From IMG/VR virus record IMGVR_UViG_3300002307_000003: DNA of 64,000 nt; one strand, written 5' to 3'. The notes beneath the pieces are model-generated. The model had not been told where the DNA came from, ran no database searches, and saw only the letters and a list, made by a program, of their open reading frames with translations. Shown here one piece after another: positions 2,162 through 61,576 of this stretch (the first letter of the stretch is position 1; each line of letters opens with the position of its first letter). The translations under genes and the position numbers were made by a program. Source of the stretch: a virus.

Positions 2162-2414
2162 CGTTATACAAATCAAACGCCGTACTAAAGATGTAGAAAA
2201 AGAATTGGCGGCAGAAAAAGGATTGGCAGTACCTACAGATGTCTTTGATAAAGAGGGTAACTTTAAAAAGATAGACTTTCATAATAGCTCAGGCAACTTT
2301 ATCTTAGAAGCACTATGGGACGACCGCGATGAACAGAATGAAGAGAATCGCATTGCTTTTCGTAAATGGGCTTATCACATGATGAAGAATAAGGGGTATG
2401 CAATTGAACTTTGA
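2154..2414 (+). CDS. hypothetical protein
   Basis: ATG at 2154 preceded by GGAGG, preferred over the track start at 2127. Confidence 0.55.
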   Translation: MTNVIQIKRRTKDVEKELAAEKGLAVPTDVFDKEGNFKKIDFHNSSGNFILEALWDDRDEQNEENRIAFRKWAYHMMKNKGYAIEL

Positions 2415-2512
2415 TAATGAAAAGACATGGTGGCAAGTTGCAAAATGGTACGTAGTTATCCTATTTACTTACTTTTTTGGCAGAATACTATATGATTATG
2501 TTATTTGCTATT

Positions 2513-2782
2513 TGTAAGTCATTGATTAATAACACTTTGTCACACTTGTCACACTTGTCCCCCTCAAAACACACATTGGTACACCCCTGTAATTTATTTT
2601 ATTTTATTATAAATTGAATAATAACACAGACAAGTGTGACAAGTATGACAACTTGTTTAAAATCAATGGGTTACAGAGGGGTAAAGGGTGACACACAATT
2701 GTAACAGAATTGTAACAACCCTTTATAATCAAGCACTTAGCTAAAAAGAAGTATGACAAACTGTTATAAATCAAGGACTTAC
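2513..2782. repeat. 270-bp repeat-rich control module A (reverse complement of module B at 60841-61110)
   Basis: Bounded by inverted TGTAAGTCATTGATT / AATCAAGGACTTAC. Contains tandem TTGTCACAC units and their inverted copies (GTGTGACAAG), AATTGTAACA repeats and an AT-rich centre. Roughly 80% identical by eye to the reverse complement of 60841-61110. Confidence 0.9.
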
Positions 2783-2790
2783 GATACTCC

Positions 2791-2820
2791 TTGACAGAGT
2801 AGAAAAAATATATCTATAAT
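2791..2820 (+). promoter_or_regulatory. near-consensus sigma70 promoter for the primase operon
   Basis: TTGACA (2791-2796), 18-bp spacer, TATAAT (2815-2820), immediately after module A. Confidence 0.6.
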
Positions 2821-2833
2821 TTTGAACAAAATT

Positions 2834-2843
2834 TGCATTAGTT
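2834..2843 (+). promoter_or_regulatory. TGCATTAGT motif copy (no GGGCG partner)
   Basis: TGCATTAGTT, 9 nt before ATG 2853 and 13 nt after the TATAAT. Confidence 0.35.
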
Positions 2844-2852
2844 AGGACGAAT

Positions 2853-5180
2853 ATGGAAAACACCACGGATAATTTAAAACCACAATGCTTGCCCGTTAAT
2901 ATGGCAAACATTCCACTCGAACTCAAAACGATACCGCGTTGGGTATTATGGCGTATGGTACAGATGGGCGATGAAAACGCACCACGATGGTCAAAAATGC
3001 CAGTCCAGCCCAATGGCCAATCTGCTTCATCAACCAATGCAGAACAATGGACAGACTTCATGACTGTCGAACACGCATACAACTCCAACCCAGGCAAGTT
3101 TGATGGCATAGGCTTCGTCTTCTCGAAAGATGACAACTTAGTAGGCATAGACCTAGACGACTGCCTTGATCCCGTCACTCACCAATTTATCTCGCCCGCA
3201 TCAGAGCAAATTGCGACGCGACTCAACGGGTATATGGAAGTCTCACCCTCGGGCACAGGTGTTAAGATATTCACACGTGCAACGCTTCCCGCCGCACATG
3301 TAGATCACTCGATCGGGTTAGAAGTTTATCCTCACTCACGATACTTTACTGTGACGGGTCATCACATCTCAGGTACGATTCCTGATGATGAACAAGACGT
3401 AACTGCTATAGTGCCGCCGAGACAACTTACCAAAACAGGTGACGCGTTCGCGGACTATACACCCCCGCTCGAAGGATATGATATTGCCAAAGTAGAATCG
3501 GAGATCCTACCGAACTACTCACCCGATACAGGTTATGCAGAGTGGTTAAAGATCGGCGCAATTCTTCATCATCAAGGTCAAGGTGACATTGAGTGGTGTG
3601 AGTTATGGGACAGATGGTCAAGCCAATCGGGTAAGTATCAATCGACAGGGCTCAACTCGTGTGAATCCAAATGGAGAACGTTTAAAGGCAGTGGTGCCAC
3701 GTTGCGCTCACTTGTGTTTGAAGTGAATCAGCAATTACTAAAGCAAGCGCTCGCCAATGGGGACACGATTTTAGACAACAACGTGATGGCGCACGCTCGA
3801 GTATTCCTCGATAGTTTTTACTCATCAGAAGAAGGTTACCGAATCGTACATTATGCCGATGACTTTTATATTTATGCAGACACACACTATGAGATCATAG
3901 AAGAATTAACTGTCAGATCAGACCTATATAAGTTTTTAGATAAGTGCAAGAAGTTAGGAAGGAAGCAAGAGATCTTACCATTTAATCCAACGCCCGCATC
4001 GGTATCCGCCGCATTGGATGCGATCAAGTCGATCACACACTTACCTAACCACCCGAATACAAAACCACCGATATGGTTAATGCAGCATCGTCATAATAAA
4101 CCACCAGCATCTAAATTGATTTCGTTACATAATGGATTATTCCATTTAGAAGATGATGTATTGATACCACACTCATTAGGATTCTTTACACAGAATTCTT
4201 TAAACTTTGGCTATGATGATTCAGCATCATGTCCAACGTGGTTAAACTTTTTAAACTCAGTATGGGAGGAAGACCATGAATCAATCGAAACCTTACAAGA
4301 AATGTTCGGCTACATCCTCAGCGGGGACACACGCCAACAAAAGTTTTTTAACATCATTGGCCCTCGAAGATCAGGCAAGGGAACGATCAATAAAGTACTC
4401 GTGTCTCTCCTCGGACAACATAACACGGTCGCTCCCGAATTGGGCGAACTATGTGATAGCTTTGGTCTACAGCCTTGGCTTGGCAAGTTGCTTGCTAGTT
4501 TTACTGATGCCCGCGCTCCAGAGCGTAACCGTAATGCTGTTGTGTCTCAACTCCTTCGTATCGTTGGTGGTGATACCATTACTGTTAATAGGAAGAACAA
4601 AGAATCATGGAACGGATACTTACCCACAAGAATCGTCATCTATTCCAACGAAGTATTACAACTCACAGAAAATTCAAACGCCCTCACAGGACGAATGGTG
4701 GTATTAAAAATGACTAAATCTTTCTATAACAAGGAAGACACAGAACTTGCACGTAAGTTAGAAAATGAATTATCTGGTATTTTTAATTGGGCGATGGAAG
4801 GATTACGTAGACGATTAACACGTGGTGGATATTTCACACAACCTAAATCGGGGGCTTCATATTTAGACTTGATGACTGAATTGGGAAATCCAATCGGTTT
4901 ATTTGTAGAAGATGCATTAGTATTTGATCCGGCGGCATCTGTATCCAAAGACGATGTGTTTACATGTTACTCACGTTGGGCAATTAAGAAGAAGTTACCG
5001 CCTGGCACAGAGTTTTCATTCAAGCGTCGATTCTTGGCAGCAACGCAAGAGCATCGTATTGAAGTGGGACTACTACGCCAAGATGGAAAACGAGACCATG
5101 TATACATGGGCATCAAACTTAATGACGAAGCTCAAAAGTATATTAATAGTGTTATTACATTTGAGGAGGGTGCATTTTGA
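2853..5180 (+). CDS. bifunctional primase-polymerase / SF3 (P4/D5-type) helicase
   Basis: 775 aa. Prim-pol-like N-terminus (GIGFVFSKDDNLVGIDLDDC). P4/D5-type C-terminal domain with Walker A GPRRSGKGT and IVIYSNE. Confidence 0.85.
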   Translation: MENTTDNLKPQCLPVNMANIPLELKTIPRWVLWRMVQMGDENAPRWSKMPVQPNGQSASSTNAEQWTDFMTVEHAYNSNPGKFDGIGFVFSKDDNLVGIDLDDCLDPVTHQFISPASEQIATRLNGYMEVSPSGTGVKIFTRATLPAAHVDHSIGLEVYPHSRYFTVTGHHISGTIPDDEQDVTAIVPPRQLTKTGDAFADYTPPLEGYDIAKVESEILPNYSPDTGYAEWLKIGAILHHQGQGDIEWCELWDRWSSQSGKYQSTGLNSCESKWRTFKGSGATLRSLVFEVNQQLLKQALANGDTILDNNVMAHARVFLDSFYSSEEGYRIVHYADDFYIYADTHYEIIEELTVRSDLYKFLDKCKKLGRKQEILPFNPTPASVSAALDAIKSITHLPNHPNTKPPIWLMQHRHNKPPASKLISLHNGLFHLEDDVLIPHSLGFFTQNSLNFGYDDSASCPTWLNFLNSVWEEDHESIETLQEMFGYILSGDTRQQKFFNIIGPRRSGKGTINKVLVSLLGQHNTVAPELGELCDSFGLQPWLGKLLASFTDARAPERNRNAVVSQLLRIVGGDTITVNRKNKESWNGYLPTRIVIYSNEVLQLTENSNALTGRMVVLKMTKSFYNKEDTELARKLENELSGIFNWAMEGLRRRLTRGGYFTQPKSGASYLDLMTELGNPIGLFVEDALVFDPAASVSKDDVFTCYSRWAIKKKLPPGTEFSFKRRFLAATQEHRIEVGLLRQDGKRDHVYMGIKLNDEAQKYINSVITFEEGAF

Positions 5181-11026: not shown

Positions 11027-11223
11027 TGGCTTCCGATCTTTTAAATAAGATGCTAGAAAAAGGCGGTTTTTCCAATGCCGAAAACATTGAGAAGAAGCGC
11101 CAAGAACTAGCAGCAGCAGTCACCCGAGTCGTTATTAACGAAGCTATGGCTGAGATGAGGGCTCGCAAAGCCGAAATTGAACGCATGTCAGTTAAGACCG
11201 ATGATGGGGCGAAAAAAGACTAG
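11026..11223 (+). CDS. hypothetical protein
   Basis: 65-aa ORF with a TAATG junction onto the upstream gene. Confidence 0.5.
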   Translation: MASDLLNKMLEKGGFSNAENIEKKRQELAAAVTRVVINEAMAEMRARKAEIERMSVKTDDGAKKD

Positions 11224-11237
11224 TTTGTGCATTAGTA
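11207..11237 (+). promoter_or_regulatory. bipartite phage promoter-like element GGGCG-N16-TGCATTAGTA
   Basis: GGGCG 11207-11211, exactly 16 nt, then TGCATTAGTA 11228-11237. Lies 15 nt upstream of ATG 11253. Confidence 0.6.
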
Positions 11238-11252
11238 GGAATAGGACACCCA

Positions 11253-11423
11253 ATGTCAACTCTTAGCCCTTGTAAAGGCATTTGTCGATTAGACAAAGAG
11301 TATTGCGTTGGGTGTAAACGCCATGTTGACGAAATCGTTGAGTGGTATAACCTTTCCGAAAAACAAAAGCAAGCAGTCGTTGAAAGAATCAAAAATGGCA
11401 CAGCCCACAAATCAAAAATTTAA
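11253..11423 (+). CDS. DUF1289-like Cys-rich small protein (56 aa)
   Basis: Below the ORF-track cutoff. MSTLSPCKGICRLDKEYCVGCKRHVDEIVEW matches the C-x3-C...C-x2-C DUF1289 pattern. AGGA upstream. Confidence 0.6.
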   Translation: MSTLSPCKGICRLDKEYCVGCKRHVDEIVEWYNLSEKQKQAVVERIKNGTAHKSKI

Positions 11424-11784
11424 GTTTACTGAAGACCACGCCAAGATCATTCTTGAAATGGGTAAGCATGGAGCATCTCAAAAATCGATGTATTCCGCAA
11501 TTGGTATCAGTAAAACTACTGCTCTTAAACTTAAAAAAGAAGATCCTGATTTTGCAGAAGCTATGGACTTAGCAACAACTTATGGCCAAGCATTTTGGGA
11601 AACAATGATGTTGGCAAATATCGAAAACAAAGCATTTAATTCCCGTGTTGCAGAGATTGCATTACGTGGACAATACCCCGATGATTACAAAGATACAAGA
11701 GAACAAAAGATCGACCTCAAAGCCGAGGTAGTCGTTGACTTTAATAAAGAAATAGCTAATCTAATTTCCGCCTTAAAGCAATAA
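11395..11784 (+). CDS. terminase small subunit-like HTH protein
   Basis: ATG 11395 is preferred over 11308. An HTH (SQKSMYSAIGISKTTALKLKK) followed by EDPDFAEAMDLA resembles TerS-type N-termini. It lies about 47 kb from terL. Confidence 0.45.
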   Translation: MAQPTNQKFKFTEDHAKIILEMGKHGASQKSMYSAIGISKTTALKLKKEDPDFAEAMDLATTYGQAFWETMMLANIENKAFNSRVAEIALRGQYPDDYKDTREQKIDLKAEVVVDFNKEIANLISALKQ

Positions 11785-13269: not shown

Positions 13270-13348
13270 AAGTAGTATAAGATGTTTTTTATGGGTAGAC
13301 GAACTGGCCCCAATTGAAGTCTGGTTCTTACGTTAAGGAGTAATAGAT

Positions 13349-13867
13349 ATGGCAACAACTAATAAAATTAAAATCGTAACAGGTAAAGTACGTTTTTCAT
13401 ATGCACATGTATTTCAACCAAGTGCAGCTGTTGAAGGCGGAACACCTAAGTATTCAGTATCAATCATCATTCCAAAGAGTGATACAGAAACTGTTGCTAA
13501 GTTTCAAAAAGCATTCGAAGATGCAGCGAATACAAACGCAGCGTTCTTTGGTGGTGCTGTTCCAAAAGGTTTAAAAGGTGGTTTACGTGATGGTGATGCA
13601 GAGAAAGATGATCCAGCATATGCTAACTCATTCTTTGTCAATGCTAACTCAGCTAATAAACCTGGTGTTGTTGATGCAGATATGAATGCGATCATTGATC
13701 CTTCAGAATTCTATAGCGGTTGCTATGGTCGTGCATCAGTCACACTATATCCATACAATGCTTCGGGATCTAAAGGCGTTGCAGTTGGATTAAACAATGT
13801 TCAAAAGACAGAAGACGGCGATAAATTAGGTGGCGGTACATCTGCTGCTGTAGATTTCGCAGTTTAA
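13349..13867 (+). CDS. DUF2815-like phage ssDNA-binding protein
   Basis: KVRFSYAHVFQP...KYSVSIIIPK...LRDGD...YSGCYGRASV pattern. AAGGAG RBS. Confidence 0.75.
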   Translation: MATTNKIKIVTGKVRFSYAHVFQPSAAVEGGTPKYSVSIIIPKSDTETVAKFQKAFEDAANTNAAFFGGAVPKGLKGGLRDGDAEKDDPAYANSFFVNANSANKPGVVDADMNAIIDPSEFYSGCYGRASVTLYPYNASGSKGVAVGLNNVQKTEDGDKLGGGTSAAVDFAV

Positions 13868-25659: not shown

Positions 25660-25690
25660 TACTAATGCAAATTTAGCTTAGTTTACGCCC
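25660..25690 (-). promoter_or_regulatory. bipartite promoter-like element GGGCG-N16-TGCATTAGTA
   Basis: Plus strand shows TACTAATGCA 25660-25669, 16 nt, then CGCCC 25686-25690. The motif ends 7 nt before ATG 25652. Confidence 0.6.
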
Positions 25691-25691
25691 A

Positions 25692-25952
25692 CTATTTATT
25701 AGGTTTTCCGTTAATTATAAGGACAAACTCATTAGCCCAGTCTTCCCATTTACTGAATAGAGTAGGATCAGGAACTAAGTAACTTGAAAAGGATGGTAAT
25801 TGTGCTATATTTTTAGCCGTAATTTGCCAATCTGCTTCTTCGCTATAAGGAATAGGTTCTTGACCATAATACATGACTAAATTGCCATTAAAATTTTCCC
25901 ATGTTGTGTATTGAGGTAAGAATGGAAAAACATTCTGAAAATTATTAGCCAT
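25692..25952 (-). CDS. hypothetical protein
   Basis: 86-aa ORF translationally coupled to the upstream gene. Confidence 0.5.
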   Translation of the reverse strand: MANNFQNVFPFLPQYTTWENFNGNLVMYYGQEPIPYSEEADWQITAKNIAQLPSFSSYLVPDPTLFSKWEDWANEFVLIINGKPNK

Positions 25953-28243
25953 TACGGACGTTCATCTCCAAATTCAGCAGTAATAAGATTTCTGCCCATT
26001 TCGTAATTACCATCAATAGTATCAGATTCAAATTTAAGTCTAATTTCACGATGCTCAATACGTAAATCAATTTTTTCTGTATTTTCATCAAATGCAAATG
26101 GGCCAGAATCTTCTATGGGGCCGCGAGCAAATTTACGACCTAATATGTTTAAATTCATAGAACCACTTTGTACAAAATCAGGTTCTAGTCGTCTTAAATG
26201 CATACGACGGTTAATACCAATTGCCGTATCTTCAGAAGGCGTACCACCTACCCAACTAATATCACAAGTTGTAAAACTTGAATAAATAGAAGATTCAGCA
26301 TTAAGTGTTATTTTGTTTAATCCTGATTCATGTTGCCAAATTGCGTAGCCACCTTTTATAATATAAACACTAGTACCTACACTTGGGGACGATCCAAATG
26401 TTGTTGCTACGGTAACTAAAGTTGCTCCTGGAATACCAATGGTTGTATTATTAATAAATTGACTTGTTGTAATTAAATATTTTGGGGCTGATATGGATTG
26501 ATTTGAAAACGTTAAATATTGACCAGGACTAAATACTCCAGATTGATCACCTGATAAATAGAATTGAAATGCTGTTGCAGCAGATTGTCCTGTTGGCGTT
26601 GATCTAATAGTGTATGCTACGCTATAGGAAACATTATAATTCCAATCACCCCAAACAGGTGAGGGGAATACTTCTGTAGTAAATCCACTTGATCTTTGAG
26701 CACCTTCTGCTTGACCTGCATCATACCAAATTTTATCTTTAGTATTATAAATAATAGCATCTGTACATTCTGTTGCTGATCCCCTTGGGTAAAAGAACCA
26801 AATTTCATTATATTTAGGAACTTTTGTAGCCCATACTTTTTGACGTTGAGTATAATTAATATTATCAAATAGCCAGTTTACATTTTTATCATTAGGTAAT
26901 ACATTGACTTGACCATTATATACATAGAATCTATCAACACCCATCCAAAAATATAATCCGTCCATTTCAACAACAGCGCTGGAAGACATAATAGATATTT
27001 GGCTAGAGACAATATCATACTGCCAATAAGTAGGAGGATTGTTAACAAATGAAACACGAATTAAGCTATCAGTTGCCCAAAATAATCCTGATGGTGAACT
27101 TGTACCACCGCGAACTGGCATGCCCTTAATAATTTTACCTGTAGCTACGTTAACCTGATTAGCAAATGTGCCATTCCAATCTGTAAGTGTTTGATTAGTA
27201 TAGACTGCATTAACATTATTATTGGCAATATATCCATTTGATCCATATACAAATATGAATGGGTGAAGTACGCAAACTCCACCATCCACTGAAATAGGTC
27301 TATATGTAGGGGATGTTCCGCTTGTATCGGCTAATCCCGTCATAACCCATTGATTATTAGCATTAGGAATAGTGGAACCTATATAAACTTGAGAAGCGAC
27401 ACCGTTATCTATATTGTTTAAATTTAATCCAGGATGGGATATTAAATTTAAAGTACCGCCTAAAGGGGAATATTGATAATCAAATTGCCATAATAATCTT
27501 GAATCCGTTTGAAAATAAGTGTTTGCTAAATATACAGTTGATAAAGTTCCAGAAATTGCAGACCCAAAATTAACAGTTGTAATACCTACAGCAAAAGATG
27601 ACGAAGATACTGTGTAAATAGTTGAATTTGCAGTTTGATTTGTTGTTGCGGTGCCTGTACCGGTACCTACACCTGTTGCAATAAAAGATACGCCCACTGT
27701 ATTAGAAGAGGCGCCTATTAAAGTAAAATTTGTTGTACCTACAGATGCAATGGTATAAGAAGTACCAACAACAAATGCACCAGAAGTAATAAGTTTAGAA
27801 AAAACAACTTTTGTACCTGCTGGAAAAGTGGAAGTATAATCCGTGGAACTAGAAATAGTAAAAGATGTTGTAGTATTTGTTGCTATTGTGAATGGAGCAT
27901 ACCCTGTAGCCATAATGGCTGAGTATGGGCCACTACCAATACCAAAAGATTGTCCTGTTGTAAAAACATCTAAACCATTTTGATTACCTGCAAAAACATA
28001 ATTAACGCCATTATAGGCATTCATAATCATACCACGTGGAATACCATTAAATGTATTTGATAGTGTATTGTATCCGCCTATTTTTTTAGGTATGCCACGT
28101 TGAAAGCGACACCAAACACCATCACTAAATTCACGGGATTCAAATGTAGTACCATCTCTTTTTATACCGGGTTGGACACCTAATGTATAAATTTGATTAT
28201 ACTGGGACTGTCCTTGCTGCTGCTGTTGTTGATCTGCAGCCAT
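25952..28243 (-). CDS. large tail/virion structural protein
   Basis: 763 aa, Ser/Thr/Gly-rich and beta-rich in composition, within the tail gene run. Confidence 0.6.
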   Translation of the reverse strand: MAADQQQQQQGQSQYNQIYTLGVQPGIKRDGTTFESREFSDGVWCRFQRGIPKKIGGYNTLSNTFNGIPRGMIMNAYNGVNYVFAGNQNGLDVFTTGQSFGIGSGPYSAIMATGYAPFTIATNTTTSFTISSSTDYTSTFPAGTKVVFSKLITSGAFVVGTSYTIASVGTTNFTLIGASSNTVGVSFIATGVGTGTGTATTNQTANSTIYTVSSSSFAVGITTVNFGSAISGTLSTVYLANTYFQTDSRLLWQFDYQYSPLGGTLNLISHPGLNLNNIDNGVASQVYIGSTIPNANNQWVMTGLADTSGTSPTYRPISVDGGVCVLHPFIFVYGSNGYIANNNVNAVYTNQTLTDWNGTFANQVNVATGKIIKGMPVRGGTSSPSGLFWATDSLIRVSFVNNPPTYWQYDIVSSQISIMSSSAVVEMDGLYFWMGVDRFYVYNGQVNVLPNDKNVNWLFDNINYTQRQKVWATKVPKYNEIWFFYPRGSATECTDAIIYNTKDKIWYDAGQAEGAQRSSGFTTEVFPSPVWGDWNYNVSYSVAYTIRSTPTGQSAATAFQFYLSGDQSGVFSPGQYLTFSNQSISAPKYLITTSQFINNTTIGIPGATLVTVATTFGSSPSVGTSVYIIKGGYAIWQHESGLNKITLNAESSIYSSFTTCDISWVGGTPSEDTAIGINRRMHLRRLEPDFVQSGSMNLNILGRKFARGPIEDSGPFAFDENTEKIDLRIEHREIRLKFESDTIDGNYEMGRNLITAEFGDERP

Positions 28244-58105: not shown

Positions 58106-59544
58106 TATTGAGCATAAGGATTTTCTGTTCGTTTTGATTGGTCATCTGCATAGGCGTAGTCTCTTGCTGGGAGGGGATCCAATTGAATCCAACCTGAATC
58201 TCTTAAGACTCGAAGAGACTGACTTAATGAATCTACATAATCATCGTGTCCGCCGGCTTCAGGAAATGAACAGACTTGACGTAAGAAACGTTTAGACCAG
58301 TCTGCATATTCTTCAGGTCTTTCTGGATCTTCTGGAATAAATACTTTGCCTTTTGCAATTAATGGTGCTACAATATTAAGACGTTGGACTTTATCTGCGC
58401 GACCTGGGTTATATCCGCGGACAGGCACACCAGCACCTTGAAGTTCTTGTATGAGGGAGATACCTGCTGACTTATCTTCCATAAGTATGAGATCTGCTTT
58501 TCGTCCTTTGCCGAAGTCGTTGTCTGACCCATAGACAACTTCCTTAAAGTCTTCTATGACTTTGCGGCGAAGTTCTGGATAAGAAAGATGAGCATCCCAA
58601 GCATCAAGTAATATGATGGATGTGCCTGCGTCCTCCCTTTCAAATACACCCCATATGGTACAAGCTGTTGGGTCGTTCATTGTTTTTTCTGACGTAGCTG
58701 GATCGTAACTGGCAATAACATACTCAAGATCTGGCGTAGGTTTGTTTGCTGGCCACATACGAAATTGTTTACGTTTGATGATACCTGCTTGCTCAGGATC
58801 TAATATTTCACCATAAATTTCTTGGCGACCAATATCTGTGCCATCATAAGTTTCTAATTGTTTAAAGAAGGTTTCAGACAAGTGCATCTTGTTGTCATAT
58901 GATGATGCATTAACTACATAAACATCACCGCCTACTTTACCCTCGTTTAAATCAACAATTAATTCTTTAGGTTTTGGTGTTGTGGTAATGATTTGTTGAA
59001 CGCGAGGAATTCTAGCATCTTTAAGACGCAGCGTAAACTGAACGCCATCATAAGCTTCATCTAAATATTCAAATGCACATAATTCATCAAACCAAGCACC
59101 ATGGAATTGTTTACCACGATAACGTTCAGGTTCTGATCCAGGAATACCTTGAATCAAAGATCCATTGGTCAATGTAATCTCAAAAAGAGATTTGTTATAA
59201 TCTTTAATAATGGAAGGGGGTATAATGTTAAGAAGACCTGAGTCTCCTTCAAAGCATGTTGCGCGAATATCGTTTGAGGTAGGAGCTGTAACTAACCAGC
59301 GAGTATTATTGTAACGCCACGCACGAATTCCAATCCAATGGGAAGCTGTGTGGGTTTTACCTGAACCCCGGCCTGCTAACATGAGGAATGTATCAAACTC
59401 TCCGTCTTCGGGTTCCTTTTGATGGGGGAGTGCTTGTAGTGCCCATTTAATTTGCCAGATGGCAGCCTCAAGCTGAGGCTTAGGCCAATGCCTATTTTTA
59501 GTGGCAAAATCTGATAAGATTTTTTCTTGCTTGGGTGTTAACAT
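58105..59544 (-). CDS. terL: terminase large subunit
   Basis: Walker A LAGRGSGKT, Walker B HGAWFDE, and a C-terminal nuclease-like region (GGHDDYVDSL). Confidence 0.9.
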   Translation of the reverse strand: MLTPKQEKILSDFATKNRHWPKPQLEAAIWQIKWALQALPHQKEPEDGEFDTFLMLAGRGSGKTHTASHWIGIRAWRYNNTRWLVTAPTSNDIRATCFEGDSGLLNIIPPSIIKDYNKSLFEITLTNGSLIQGIPGSEPERYRGKQFHGAWFDELCAFEYLDEAYDGVQFTLRLKDARIPRVQQIITTTPKPKELIVDLNEGKVGGDVYVVNASSYDNKMHLSETFFKQLETYDGTDIGRQEIYGEILDPEQAGIIKRKQFRMWPANKPTPDLEYVIASYDPATSEKTMNDPTACTIWGVFEREDAGTSIILLDAWDAHLSYPELRRKVIEDFKEVVYGSDNDFGKGRKADLILMEDKSAGISLIQELQGAGVPVRGYNPGRADKVQRLNIVAPLIAKGKVFIPEDPERPEEYADWSKRFLRQVCSFPEAGGHDDYVDSLSQSLRVLRDSGWIQLDPLPARDYAYADDQSKRTENPYAQ

Positions 59545-60530
59545 GTAGATATAAATCCTTCGCCAACAAGTATGCTGTTGTCATTTCCCGTTGTTTCAAT
59601 ATGCACACACATTTGGGATTGAATGGGTGTGATCTTTTTAATATATCTTCTTCCAAGATAAACTTTTACTGGTGGGGAGTTTTGAATATCCATAATTTTA
59701 ATTCTAAACTTAAAATACATTGTATATGTATTTCGTCCAGGATTAAAGTTAATGGTTGTCTTTGCTCCTAATGATTCAACTAAACTTTGAATCTGTACAA
59801 CAACGTTTAAGTTCCTTGATGAGAATCTAAACCTGTCAGTCTTTTTATCATACTGATCTGACTTAGCATGCATGATGCCAGTTAATAATTCTATTCGTTC
59901 TTCTACCGATGCAAATAAATAATTGGTAGGTATGCGAGATGGAATGTTTGGTGCAAATTGTAAATGAATAGCTGGTTCTGTTTTAAAAACCCGCTTACCA
60001 TTTTTTCTTTTAGGTCCTTCAATAATTTTATACCCATGACTTTTAAACTTTTCATAAATAAAATCTTGGTAGCCTGGGATTGTTACTAAGTTATACTTTG
60101 AGTTTTTATTATAAAGCCAGAACCCAAAAATAAATGGTGGGATACTTAAAGCTTGGTAAGGAAACTCAATGGGCTTTGTGGTGGGTATAGAATACTTTGT
60201 TCGACTACGTTTATCTTTTAATGGTTCATCTATTAGGTCTTTTAGTTTAATAAACTTAAGCTTCCTCATAAATGGCCTGACGTTTTTATAAGCGTCTAAT
60301 TGTTTCCTATGGTTCCTGTCTTGGATTAAGAACCCAAGGTTAGTATCTCCCTCAATCGTTAAATGATCGTCAAAGGTAACCTCATAACATTGGTTGGCAA
60401 AATAATGTTGGACTAGTTTAACTTGAACGATTTTCCCGTCTTGGTTAAATACATAATCACCAACTTTTAATTTATCTGCTCGTTTCCAATAATCAAGCGT
60501 TAATACTTTTTGTATTGCCGTGATTGCCAT
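59538..60530 (-). CDS. free-standing intein-derived Hint + LAGLIDADG-like protein
   Basis: N-terminal Hint-like VLTLDYW...VGDYVFNQDGKIV. Two LAGLIDADG-like helices (PFIFGFWLYNKNS; IELLTGIMHAKSDQ). C-terminal Hint block CVHIETTGNDNSILVGEGFISTC. Start is ATG 60530 or TTG 60539. Its stop overlaps the terL ATG. Confidence 0.65.
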   Translation of the reverse strand: MAITAIQKVLTLDYWKRADKLKVGDYVFNQDGKIVQVKLVQHYFANQCYEVTFDDHLTIEGDTNLGFLIQDRNHRKQLDAYKNVRPFMRKLKFIKLKDLIDEPLKDKRSRTKYSIPTTKPIEFPYQALSIPPFIFGFWLYNKNSKYNLVTIPGYQDFIYEKFKSHGYKIIEGPKRKNGKRVFKTEPAIHLQFAPNIPSRIPTNYLFASVEERIELLTGIMHAKSDQYDKKTDRFRFSSRNLNVVVQIQSLVESLGAKTTINFNPGRNTYTMYFKFRIKIMDIQNSPPVKVYLGRRYIKKITPIQSQMCVHIETTGNDNSILVGEGFISTC

Positions 60531-60553
60531 TAAGTCCAAACTTATACAAGTTT

Positions 60554-60608: not shown

Positions 60609-60680
60609 TTATTTGTTCATTACGTACATAGTTACTTCGAAGCCAAAACGCATTTCAGTAGCTGCTGGAGTTGTCCACAT
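60609..60680 (-). CDS. pqqA: PqqA-like precursor peptide (23 aa)
   Basis: Translation checked base by base: MWTTPAATEMRFGFEVTMYVMNK. Fits the PqqA pattern M-W-x-x-P-x(5)-R-x-G-x-E-V-T-x-Y. AAGGA lies 7 nt upstream. Confidence 0.75.
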   Translation of the reverse strand: MWTTPAATEMRFGFEVTMYVMNK

Positions 60681-60723: not shown

Positions 60724-60805
60724 AACTAATGCAGGAAAATGGAATTGATGGCTACGCAAAACCATGAACGTTGTCTACGTATACTAATGCAAATTTGCGC
60801 AAATT
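60724..60805 (-). promoter_or_regulatory. two TGCATTAGT motifs plus a 14-bp perfect palindrome upstream of pqqA-like
   Basis: AACTAATGCA 60724-60733, TACTAATGCA 60782-60791, and the palindrome AATTTGCGCAAATT at 60792-60805. Confidence 0.5.
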
Positions 60806-60840
60806 CCTTCCAAATGCTTTAATAATTTGCGTAATACGCA

Positions 60841-61110
60841 TGTAAGTCCTTGATTCTAAACAGTTTGTCACACTTCTTTTTAGCTAAGTCATTGATTTTA
60901 AACAGTTGTTACAATTTTGTTACAATTGTGTGTCACCCTTTGACTTCTGTAACCCATTGATTAATAACACATTGTCACACTTGTCACACTTGTTTGTATA
61001 TTTATTTGATTTTAAAAAAGAAATATAGTTTACAGGGTGGTAGGTAATATGCGTTTTGAGGGTGACAAGTGTGACAAGTGTGACAACTTGTTTAGAATCA
61101 ATAACTTACA
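60841..61110. repeat. 270-bp repeat-rich control module B (reverse complement of module A)
   Basis: Same TGTAAGTCCTTGATT ends, TTGTCACAC tandems, GTGTGACAAG tandems and TTGTTACAATT repeats as 2513-2782, in the opposite orientation. Confidence 0.9.
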
Positions 61111-61319
61111 AAAGGCAAAATTGCCAGATTTTATAAAAAAAATTTTTAGACAATCGACTTTTTTAAAAATATACGGAATTTATACAAACTTGCGGTCTGT
61201 GGGGCCCCCGCCGCCCCCTCCCTCGATGGGACCCAAATTGGGTGACCGATTTATATTTAATACCCTTATTGCCATTGTGGGTATATGGTTCGCTAGTCTA
61301 GCAAGGCACACAGGGCATC

Positions 61320-61370: not shown

Positions 61371-61576
61371 CGAGGCATCGAGGCAAGGTGCGAGCGAGGG
61401 TGCGCGCATCATCGAGGCAAGGTGGCAAGGTGGCAAGGTGCGACGCGATCGAGCGAGGCATTGAGGCAAGGTGCGAGGCGTGGCGATGAGGTGGCGAGGC
61501 AAGGTGCGAGGCGAGATGATCGAGCATCGAGGCATCGTGCGACGCGATCGAGCCGAGGCATCGAGGCAAGGTGCGC
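61371..61576 (+). repeat. GC-rich nest of direct repeats (GAGGCAAGGTGCGA x5, CGAGGCATCG x3, 38-nt unit x2)
   Basis: GAGGCAAGGTGCG starts at 61380, 61414 (with GCAAGGTG tripled), 61463, 61496 and 61563. TGCGACGCGATCGAGC occurs at 61439 and 61538. Confidence 0.9.

Follow-up and report, generated by a model that had tools for sequence, protein, structure and literature searches.

The origins of Staphylococcus aureus pathogenicity islands (SaPIs) carry iterons on both sides of an AT-rich region, in opposite directions and next to the rep gene, and these iterons are read by the C-terminal winged helix of Rep or PriRep, which is the specificity determinant (PMC9371898). Phage SPP1 has two similarly organised origins, approximately 13 kb apart, which combine direct repeats with an AT-rich unwinding element and are both bound by one initiator; the second origin is thought to stall forks and to trigger the switch to concatemer synthesis (PMC6316719). 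In T5-like phages, two inverted modules of 131 bp, located 1.9–4.3 kb apart, enclose poorly conserved pre-early open reading frames (ORFs), contain paired 9-bp protein boxes and are highly conserved; this IRC-spacer-IRD / IRD′-spacer-IRC′ pair is a candidate injection stop signal of unproven function (bioRxiv 10.1101/866236). Here, we describe a pair of inverted modules of 270 nucleotides in a 64,000-nucleotide stretch of viral DNA (IMG/VR record IMGVR_UViG_3300002307_000003; hereafter, the window), in which tandem 9-mers (iterons) flank an AT-rich spacer and are accompanied by sites matching the consensus for integration host factor (IHF). The two modules, A and B, bracket an early-gene cassette. 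They belong to a known general kind, that of iteron plus IHF nucleoprotein sites, and are tentatively read here as replication origins or initiator-loading sites.

An earlier note on this DNA had claimed that 2513–2782 is the reverse complement of 60841–61110, and this was confirmed over approximately 270 nucleotides. Alignment of 2450–2850 (+) against 60773–61173 (−) using MAFFT gave a mean column identity of 84%, where about 80% had been estimated by eye; the similarity spans the module and is not confined to low-complexity AT sequence, the AT-rich centre being the least conserved part, as had been observed. The similarity has sharp borders at the TGTAAGTC...GACTTAC ends, and each module is bounded by an inverted 15-bp sequence, TGTAAGTCnTTGATT, in agreement with the inverted ends described earlier. 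A repeat search recovers the pair as three inverted arms (100 nucleotides at 90%, 74 nucleotides at 85% and 74 nucleotides at 80% identity). The core of a module consists, in order, of three tandem 9-mers, a 24-nucleotide box, a 41-nucleotide AT-rich spacer (a T-rich stretch followed by an A-rich one) and 2.5 inverted 9-mers. The internal palindromes that had been noticed around the AT-rich core correspond to one imperfect palindrome of approximately 125 nucleotides, the arms of which can form a stem of 23–27 bp as a single strand (fold z = −5.6 and −7.1). Beyond the core is an outward-pointing tail, in which three IHF-type sites are each paired with more iterons in the right-arm orientation. 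The earlier scheme of about four like subunits with internal gaps of 6–8 nucleotides survives in part: the recurrent 13-mer TAAGTCnTTGATT is indeed present four times per module and the subunit layout is recognisable, but the gap from 13-mer to iteron is 9 nucleotides and the third subunit instead holds variant iterons (a TTGTTACAA tandem and GGGTGACAC). The features of the modules and their immediate surroundings are listed below by position in the window and strand.

2513–2782 (+): module A, inverted copy of 60841–61110, where the early cassette meets the primase operon; its orthologues in relatives are upstream of the primase gene
2515–2527 (−): IHF-consensus site A1, AATCAATGACTTA on the − strand; holds the stop codon of ORF 2404–2517
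2537–2563 (+): left arm of module A, tandem 9-mers TTGTCACAC TTGTCACAC TTGTCCCCC; kept in the alignment of relatives
2564–2587 (+): box beside the left arm, TCAAAACACACATT...; kept across iteron types, with a consensus in relatives of approximately TCTAAAnCACTTTAYCC
2588–2628 (no strand): AT-rich spacer, with a T-rich part followed by an A-rich part; candidate site of unwinding or bending
2629–2651 (−): right arm of module A, inverted iterons GACAAGTGTGACAAGTATGACAA
2661–2673 (+): IHF-consensus site A2, AATCAATGGGTTA
2686–2719 (−): variant iterons, GGGTGACAC and tandem TTGTTACAA read on the − strand; the copy in module B is the tandem repeat at 60906–60931
2727–2739 (+): IHF-consensus site A3, AATCAAGCACTTA
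2751–2759 (−): outer single iteron, TTGTCATAC
2769–2781 (+): IHF-consensus site A4, AATCAAGGACTTA, at the outward end of module A
2834–2842 (+): phage-type promoter motif, TGCATTAGT(A), 11 nucleotides before the primase ATG
2853–5180 (+): primase-helicase gene neighbouring module A, encoding AEP primase, PriCT_2, D5_N and SF3 helicase domains and a C-terminal winged helix
60725–60733 and 60783–60791 (−): two phage-type promoter motifs facing the PqqA-like ORF and the late operon
60841–61110 (−): module B, where the early cassette meets the late/packaging operon
60843–60855 (−): IHF-consensus site at the end of module B that faces outward
60885–60897 (−), 60950–60962 (−) and 61096–61108 (+): other IHF-consensus sites of module B
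60972–60989 (+): right arm of module B, inverted iterons
61060–61086 (−): left arm of module B, three tandem 9-mers

All eight exact copies of TTGTCACAC in the window are located inside the two modules, as are 9 of the 11 copies of the heptamer TTGTCAC; approximately 9.5 copies of the heptamer would be expected for the whole window and two occur elsewhere in it. The heptamer is avoided outside the modules, and a role as Chi-like sites was rejected because of this avoidance. Read on the opposite strand, the 13-mers have the sequence AATCAANNNNTTA, a perfect match to the IHF consensus WATCAANNNNTTR, with four such sites per module. The window contains 16 IHF-consensus matches, compared with 7.3 ± 2.6 in simulations, and half of them (8/16) fall within the 540 nucleotides of the modules; matches are also enriched upstream of the primase gene of relatives compared with the rest of each locus. 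From these consensus matches we infer that IHF may act at the modules. Two more matches, 160 nucleotides apart, are present in ORF 25952–28243 (27184–27196 and 27343–27355, − strand), and one of the two is identical to the module site AATCAATGGGTTA.

Relatives of the window were gathered by four scans of IMG/VR, one with an 18-mer and three with the primase, TerL and the sigma factor as probes, which yielded hundreds of related contigs. More than 100 related viral contigs carry the module pair at the two corresponding positions, and close relatives contain full-length orthologues of both A and B. Orthologous modules are 86–96% alike, compared with 80–84% for A against B; therefore, the duplication is old, both copies have been maintained, and no recent gene conversion has taken place between them. 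In the relatives inspected, module A is positioned directly upstream of the primase-helicase gene (primase 57–97% identical) and the module B orthologues lie 1.3–1.5 kb upstream of TerL; distant members (primase 57–82% and TerL 86–92% identical) show an unchanged architecture at both positions. The order of elements in relatives is tandem 9-mers, a TCTAAAnCACTTTAYCC-like box, a T-rich/A-rich spacer (at least 62–86% A+T), inverted 9-mers, IHF-type sites with iterons, and promoters. All relatives keep one gene order around the two modules. The intervening cassette measures 5.2–13 kb and is highly mosaic, its only universal genes being those for the sigma factor and for a small ORF family, w2127, and it can be swapped while the flanks stay window-like (L172/L374).

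The 9-mer itself differs by lineage, with a period of 9 in nearly all of the at least 18 types distinguished by crude typing with one label per module: TTGTCACAC, TTGTCACCC, TTGTCAGGG, TTGTCCAAC, AGAAGACAY, AGTAGTCAY, AGTAGTACT, AGACAGGGT, TGTTGGGTC, CTAGGGTTG, GTATGGGTA, GTATCCGAT, TCCATAGTA, GGGTTGCAA, GCACAGGTY, TTGTACCMC, CTAGGTTGG and TTTGTCGGR. Modules A and B are of the same type in approximately 20 genomes in which both positions are available and differ by one base per unit in four more; no A/B type mismatch was found among these genomes. The outer, unpaired iterons change type along with the arms. Single-label typing is imperfect because some modules are composite, with outer and core iterons that differ (e.g., outer TTGTCAGGG with core GTATGGGTA or AGTAGTCAY), and an apparent type discordance between L386 and L394 became void once composite modules were recognised. 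The matched types, together with the switching of the outer iterons, speak for a reader that recognises sequence and against a hairpin alone. The units look bipartite (4+5), being composed of GGGT followed by TGTCA, AGTAT, TGCAA, TGCTA, CTGTT or AGACA and, in a second set, of CACT, CCCT or GGGT followed by TGTCA; this appearance hints at a modular reader.

Outward promoters were identified just past both modules. Directly after module A, as the earlier note had stated, is a TTGACA-18-TATAAT promoter (2791–2820, + strand), which matches the sigma-70 consensus at 12/12 positions and faces the primase gene; the statement that module B faces the pqqA-like gene and the late operon also holds, and the two phage-type promoter motifs listed above point in that direction. 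The phage-type motif TGCATTAGT has 12 copies in the window, all in gene orientation and often with GGGCGAAA approximately 14 nucleotides upstream. Written as TGCATTAGTA, this phage-specific promoter-like motif starts at 2834, 10229, 11228 and 11834 on the + strand and at 25661, 32397, 35876, 50259, 54256, 58076, 60725 and 60783 on the − strand, six copies having GGGCG(A/G/T)(A/G)(A/T) approximately 14 nucleotides upstream. Its probable reader is the phage sigma factor (1580–2161), in which Pfam detects regions 2 and 3 only. In relatives, a conserved palindrome, TTTCACAATGTGAAA, is found between module A and the phage-type primase promoter (e.g., L178, 2955–2975; L186, 2468–2490; L202, 2940–2962), at the place where the window has the consensus sigma-70 promoter.

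Rightward genes extend from approximately 61.7 kb across the window junction to 18.7 kb, and leftward genes from 60.5 kb to 18.7 kb. Module B is situated where the early genes and the late/packaging operon diverge; this operon comprises a PqqA-like peptide, a 333-aa intein-like ORF, TerL and then the structural genes. Module A lies approximately 7 kb past module B, between the early genes, including that of the phage sigma factor, and the replication genes, which encode a primase-helicase homologous to SaPI5 PriRep5 (7OLA, E = 2e-29), an SNF2 helicase, a DUF2800 nuclease, an Enc34-type SSB (a protein that binds single-stranded DNA), a ribonucleotide reductase and PolA. Measured against a relative in which a single contig spans A and B, approximately 1.4 kb of the early region is absent from the window.

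Arrays of TTGTCACAC with the same layout of inverted arrays and AT spacer were also found in four unrelated settings. In Group X, which comprises approximately 48 contigs of 55–58 kb related to pelagiphage HTVC023P/027P, two tandem units, each composed of a TTGTCACAC array, an AT spacer and an inverted array, fill the divergent gap between TerS and small early-like genes (L046, 10030–10330; other examples are L039, L043, L047, L011 and L066). Five of the seven near-full-length Group X contigs end within approximately 600 nucleotides of the arrays, which suggests that the genome termini are nearby. The right-arm copies of Group X vary (CGTGACAA, GTGCCAA, GAGACAA) without a compensating change in the left arm, and these variants therefore fit protein sites rather than structure. 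In the other three settings, the arrays adjoin replication genes: upstream of a D5-like primase-helicase gene in L007, immediately 3′ of such a gene in L019, as in SaPIs, and beside VRR-NUC/SNF2 replication genes in a high-GC group. The 9-mer TTGTCAGGG occurs as tandems in high-GC phages, just upstream of a gene that looks, by eye only, like that of a lambda-Nu1-type helix-turn-helix (HTH) protein (TerS), and as inverted arrays in another phage group.

Searches elsewhere returned little. Neither the module nor the array region of Group X had a match among GenBank phages (blastn, distant mode), and the modules gave no hit in Rfam and tRNA scans; the 9-mer matched only miRNAs and primers in the literature. 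A scan of genome contigs with the 18-mer gave mixed repeats from metagenome-assembled genomes, with no pointer to a host and no dispersed module-related family, and a scan with AGAAGACANAGAAGACA was uninformative, purine-rich coding sequence predominating among the matches listed. The best TerL matches were a metagenomic siphovirus (53%) and Caulobacter phages (42%), with no close cultured phage.

The reading that we favour, with well short of even confidence, is that the modules are origins or initiator-loading sites. They would be matched cis-acting sites, one per border of the early cassette, each assembling a higher-order protein–DNA complex: a sequence-specific factor would bind the tandem 9-mers that flank an AT-rich spacer prone to melting, host IHF or an IHF-like protein would bend the outward tail, and the further iterons would fold back onto the core. 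Module A, upstream of the primase-helicase operon, would serve as an origin or initiator-loading site, and module B as a second origin or as a partner site of the same initiator, comparable to SPP1 oriL/oriR or P4 ori/crr. Since the modules point outward, forks would travel co-directionally with transcription along both arms, meeting near 19 kb. This reading is favoured because the core has a textbook origin layout, with two to three tandem 9-mers on each side of an AT-rich element in both modules and in relatives, and because module A and three of the unrelated arrays adjoin replication genes. The scarcity of the heptamer outside the modules, the many specificities on one scaffold and the SPP1 precedent for two sites with one initiator also count for it. 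Iteron-specificity swapping is typical of ori/initiator and incompatibility systems, and lambda cosB, P1 parS and the pSC101/R6K origins are IHF-assisted complexes, which likewise combine repeats for a specific protein with IHF sites for the compact folding of DNA; in contrast to these, the present locus has four IHF-consensus sites per 270 bp and two matched predicted complexes per genome.

The comparison with SaPI origins is close in that two opposed sets of short iterons surround an AT-rich centre next to a primase-helicase gene. However, SaPI iterons are 5–6 bp long and located downstream of the gene, whereas those described here are 9 bp long and upstream, and the present system differs further in its two copies per genome, its IHF-consensus sites, its outward tail and a primase winged helix that does not co-vary with the iterons. 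SPP1 oriL/oriR resemble the modules as two similar sites kilobases apart, of which one belongs to the replication region and one lies among late genes. The SPP1 source describes direct repeats with no mention of IHF sites or a palindromic core, both of which are present in the modules, and names gp38 as the origin-binding protein, with oriL inside its gene (PMC6316719), whereas no cognate initiator was found here. A hypervariable specificity series is unreported for SPP1, compared with at least 18 types in the present family.

Several results weigh against an origin function, the main weakness of which is that the cognate initiator was not found. The primase was tested as the prime candidate because SaPI Rep/PriRep proteins read iterons with their C-terminal winged helix. 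The presumed recognition helix of the primase, FKRRFLAATQEH, does not change between iteron types, and primase phylogeny conflicts with type: L191 has a primase 87% identical to those of TTGTCACAC phages and carries GGGGTAC, and L172 has one 83% identical to that of the window and carries AGAAGACA. No primase segment is specific to same-type phages; at the positions that set a phage's primase apart from those of close relatives with a different type, agreement with distant phages of its own type is only 11–26%. Among ORF families within ±10 kb of the sigma gene, none cleanly tracks iteron type, so that the co-variation expected of an initiator's DNA-binding domain failed to appear for the primase and for these families alike; a part of each genome was sampled in these and the following co-variation tests. 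In addition, GC skew tracks gene orientation and is thus uninformative on the origin, module B adjoins packaging genes, the outward promoters suit a transcriptional role equally well, and several unrelated phages have like arrays directly upstream of terminase small-subunit genes.

Other candidate readers fared no better. No co-variation with type was observed for the sigma factor, the w2127 family, a SprT-like 216-aa protein, the 330-aa Hint/LAGLIDADG-like (intein-like) protein, the approximately 100-aa first late protein or the GHAW 92-aa family, which is shared with Group X; a 551-aa early protein was found in few lineages only, and a winged-HTH ORF is restricted to some lineages. The HTH of the TerS-like protein is nearly invariant over five types and tracks type no better than control proteins (12 genomes). 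Two genomes of the AGAAGACA type have no common cassette gene beyond sigma and w2127. DnaA was excluded because the modules contain no TTWTNCACA box and this consensus is depleted in the window (2 copies vs. 12.2 ± 3.6 expected). The interpretation in the earlier note is supported in part: the layout is a conserved multi-site one, but the early phage protein implied as the binder was looked for without success, since no tested protein tracked iteron type. The gene for the reader may lie in another part of the genome or in the host, or the reader may be a very small protein that evolves too quickly for BLAST clustering to catch. A bolder idea, to which we give little weight, is that the 9-mer is an address code read outside the phage lineage, by a strain-specific host factor or a widely shared, freely exchanged small module. 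Phages would then re-tune both cassette borders to the local reader, which would explain the existence of at least 18 types on one scaffold, the joint switching, the lack of a linked co-varying protein and the identical 9-mers in unrelated phages.

Both functions proposed in the earlier note, a multi-site operator or enhancer and paired origins, lead on the conserved multi-site module, the outward promoters and the single iteron specificity per genome. As the operators or enhancers of a developmental switch, the modules would allow one regulator at both borders to control the middle (primase) and late (packaging) promoters, with IHF aiding looping, similar to lambda OL/OR; we hold this close rival somewhat less probable than an origin function. 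Lambda OL and OR are operator arrays flanking a swappable immunity region, and here also inverted multi-site arrays of one specificity flank a swappable cassette, with outward promoters within approximately 10–60 nucleotides of each module (2791–2820; 2834, 60783 and 60725) and with specificities that differ between close relatives. The mosaic cassette is exchangeable, the Group X arrays are located in a divergent promoter region, and TTTCACAATGTGAAA in relatives would be an extra palindromic operator at the primase promoter. Head-to-tail short repeats suit small ribbon-helix-helix or Cro-like proteins, which evolve fast, too fast for BLAST clustering. Unlike lambda, however, the locus has head-to-tail 9-mers around an AT-rich palindrome instead of 17-bp dyads, as well as IHF-consensus sites; no repressor or Cro-like gene was identified, and no integrase was seen, so the phage looks lytic. 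No regulator gene of the cassette co-varies with type, the universal sigma and w2127 included, although tiny divergent ORFs were possibly missed. The AT-rich spacer is left without an obvious role because no promoter is evident there in most lineages, and the other phage-type promoters of the genome work without such modules.

An unlikely alternative is a boundary for DNA entry or packaging, either a T5-like pair of injection stops or a terminase site, with cosB- or pac-like repeats plus IHF, that would define the ends or an early-gene terminal repeat. The T5 inverted pair is a close architectural parallel: in both cases, inverted modules of 130–270 bp, kilobases apart, bracket poorly conserved early ORFs, contain 9-bp boxes (putative sites here) and show much stronger conservation than the genes they enclose. 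In lambda cosB, repeats bound by TerS are accompanied by an IHF site. Going upstream from the packaging operon, module B is the element met first, the TTGTCACAC or TTGTCAGGG tandems of unrelated phages are directly upstream of, or overlap, TerS genes, and the contig ends of Group X cluster near the arrays. However, the T5 boxes are invariant DnaA boxes, whereas the modules lack DnaA boxes and their 9-mer varies by lineage. The T5 pair is located in the terminal repeat, while contig ends in the window family lie away from the modules, the cassette being mid-contig in 66-kb contigs. Module A is 47 kb from TerL, and the near-invariance of the TerS-like HTH over five iteron types also speaks against a packaging site.

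A structural or homology element with no dedicated reader is quite improbable. It would act as a cruciform or hairpin at the 125-nucleotide palindrome, or through recombination between the inverted copies, with inversion of the cassette, a change in the mode of replication or the exchange of cassettes among phages as variants. The arms always co-vary with no co-varying protein found, the core folds with the z-scores given above, and mosaic breakpoints coincide with module borders. Nevertheless, the unpaired outer iterons switch type along with the arms and the right-arm variants in other phages are uncompensated, which together rule out a simple RNA or DNA hairpin as a sufficient explanation; six to eight identical 9-mers per module, with the same 9-mers in unrelated phages, point to a trans-acting reader, and the constant gene order and the closer similarity of orthologues than of within-genome copies do not fit recombination between the copies. 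The MITE-like element (miniature inverted-repeat transposable element) or other small mobile element of the earlier note, to which the 15-bp inverted ends would correspond, hardly deserves credence, since only two syntenic copies exist, at orthologous positions in more than 100 relatives, with no target-site duplication visible in the flanks, inverted ends that are IHF-consensus sites and no dispersed related family in the scan of genome contigs.

Additional features were observed in the vicinity of the modules and elsewhere in the window. The first leftward ORF after module B (60612–60680, − strand; 23 aa, MWTTPAATEMRFGFEVTMYVMNK) resembles a PqqA precursor with an E-x-x-x-Y motif, and many relatives have a conserved ORF of approximately 100 aa in its place. 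The 333-aa ORF (59538–60539, − strand) extends over the start codon of TerL and contains Hint-like ends together with degenerate LAGLIDADG-like motifs; it matches internal parts of long TerL profiles in PHROG and is hypervariable in the family (45–60% identity vs. 86–92% for TerL). Between module B and the first early gene, a GC-rich repeat field (61416–61575) in this AT-rich phage contains three copies of GGCAAGGT and a 33-nucleotide period at 4.3 copies, with a G/C run at approximately 61195–61225; relatives have arrays of other 8-mers at this position (e.g., GCAACATA and ACTAACAT). The window begins within an array of seven repeats of approximately 20 nucleotides (1–233; CCAATGTCACTTGGATAAAT), followed by a TTGACA-17-GATACT promoter and ORF 272–658, and a close relative has another repeat, TATGTACA, there. 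ORF 2404–2517 (+) encodes a hydrophobic 37-aa peptide (MNFDNEKTWWQVAKWYVVILFTYFFGRILYDYVICYL) with protein-level conservation in relatives. The gene for the terminase-small-subunit-like HTH protein (11308–11784, + strand; PHROG 309, E = 8e-12) is located in the replication arm, 47 kb from TerL, and is preceded by a late-type promoter (11207–11237). The Enc34-type SSB gene is closely preceded by a DUF2815 RNA motif (13292–13351, + strand; Rfam RF03084, 53 bits), and five paralogous glycine-rich ORFs of approximately 360–445 aa (36639–43456, − strand), with numerous GGN-repeat families, dominate the repeat list and the GC skew.

Compared with the systems considered here, in a literature search that was not exhaustive, the locus goes further in three respects: an inverted, matched pair brackets the early cassette; the pair is conserved family-wide as a fixed scaffold on which at least 18 9-mer specificities have been swapped; and no linked protein co-varies with them. 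The T5 likeness suggests that early-region borders of this kind may be a general, under-studied trait of virulent phages. An inverted pair of tandem 9-mers, AT spacer and inverted 9-mers with IHF sites could serve as a signature for the early cassette and for probable origins in uncultured phages. The lack of a linked co-varying protein would point either to a host factor, with possible use in marking host range, or to a class of very small, quickly evolving DNA-binding proteins overlooked by current annotation. If the modules are origins or master control sites, the family would offer a naturally occurring set of at least 18 swaps in specificity on a single fixed scaffold, with two matched copies per genome, and thereby a system for studying how cis-acting sites and their reader are co-tuned and how co-infecting relatives escape cross-talk.

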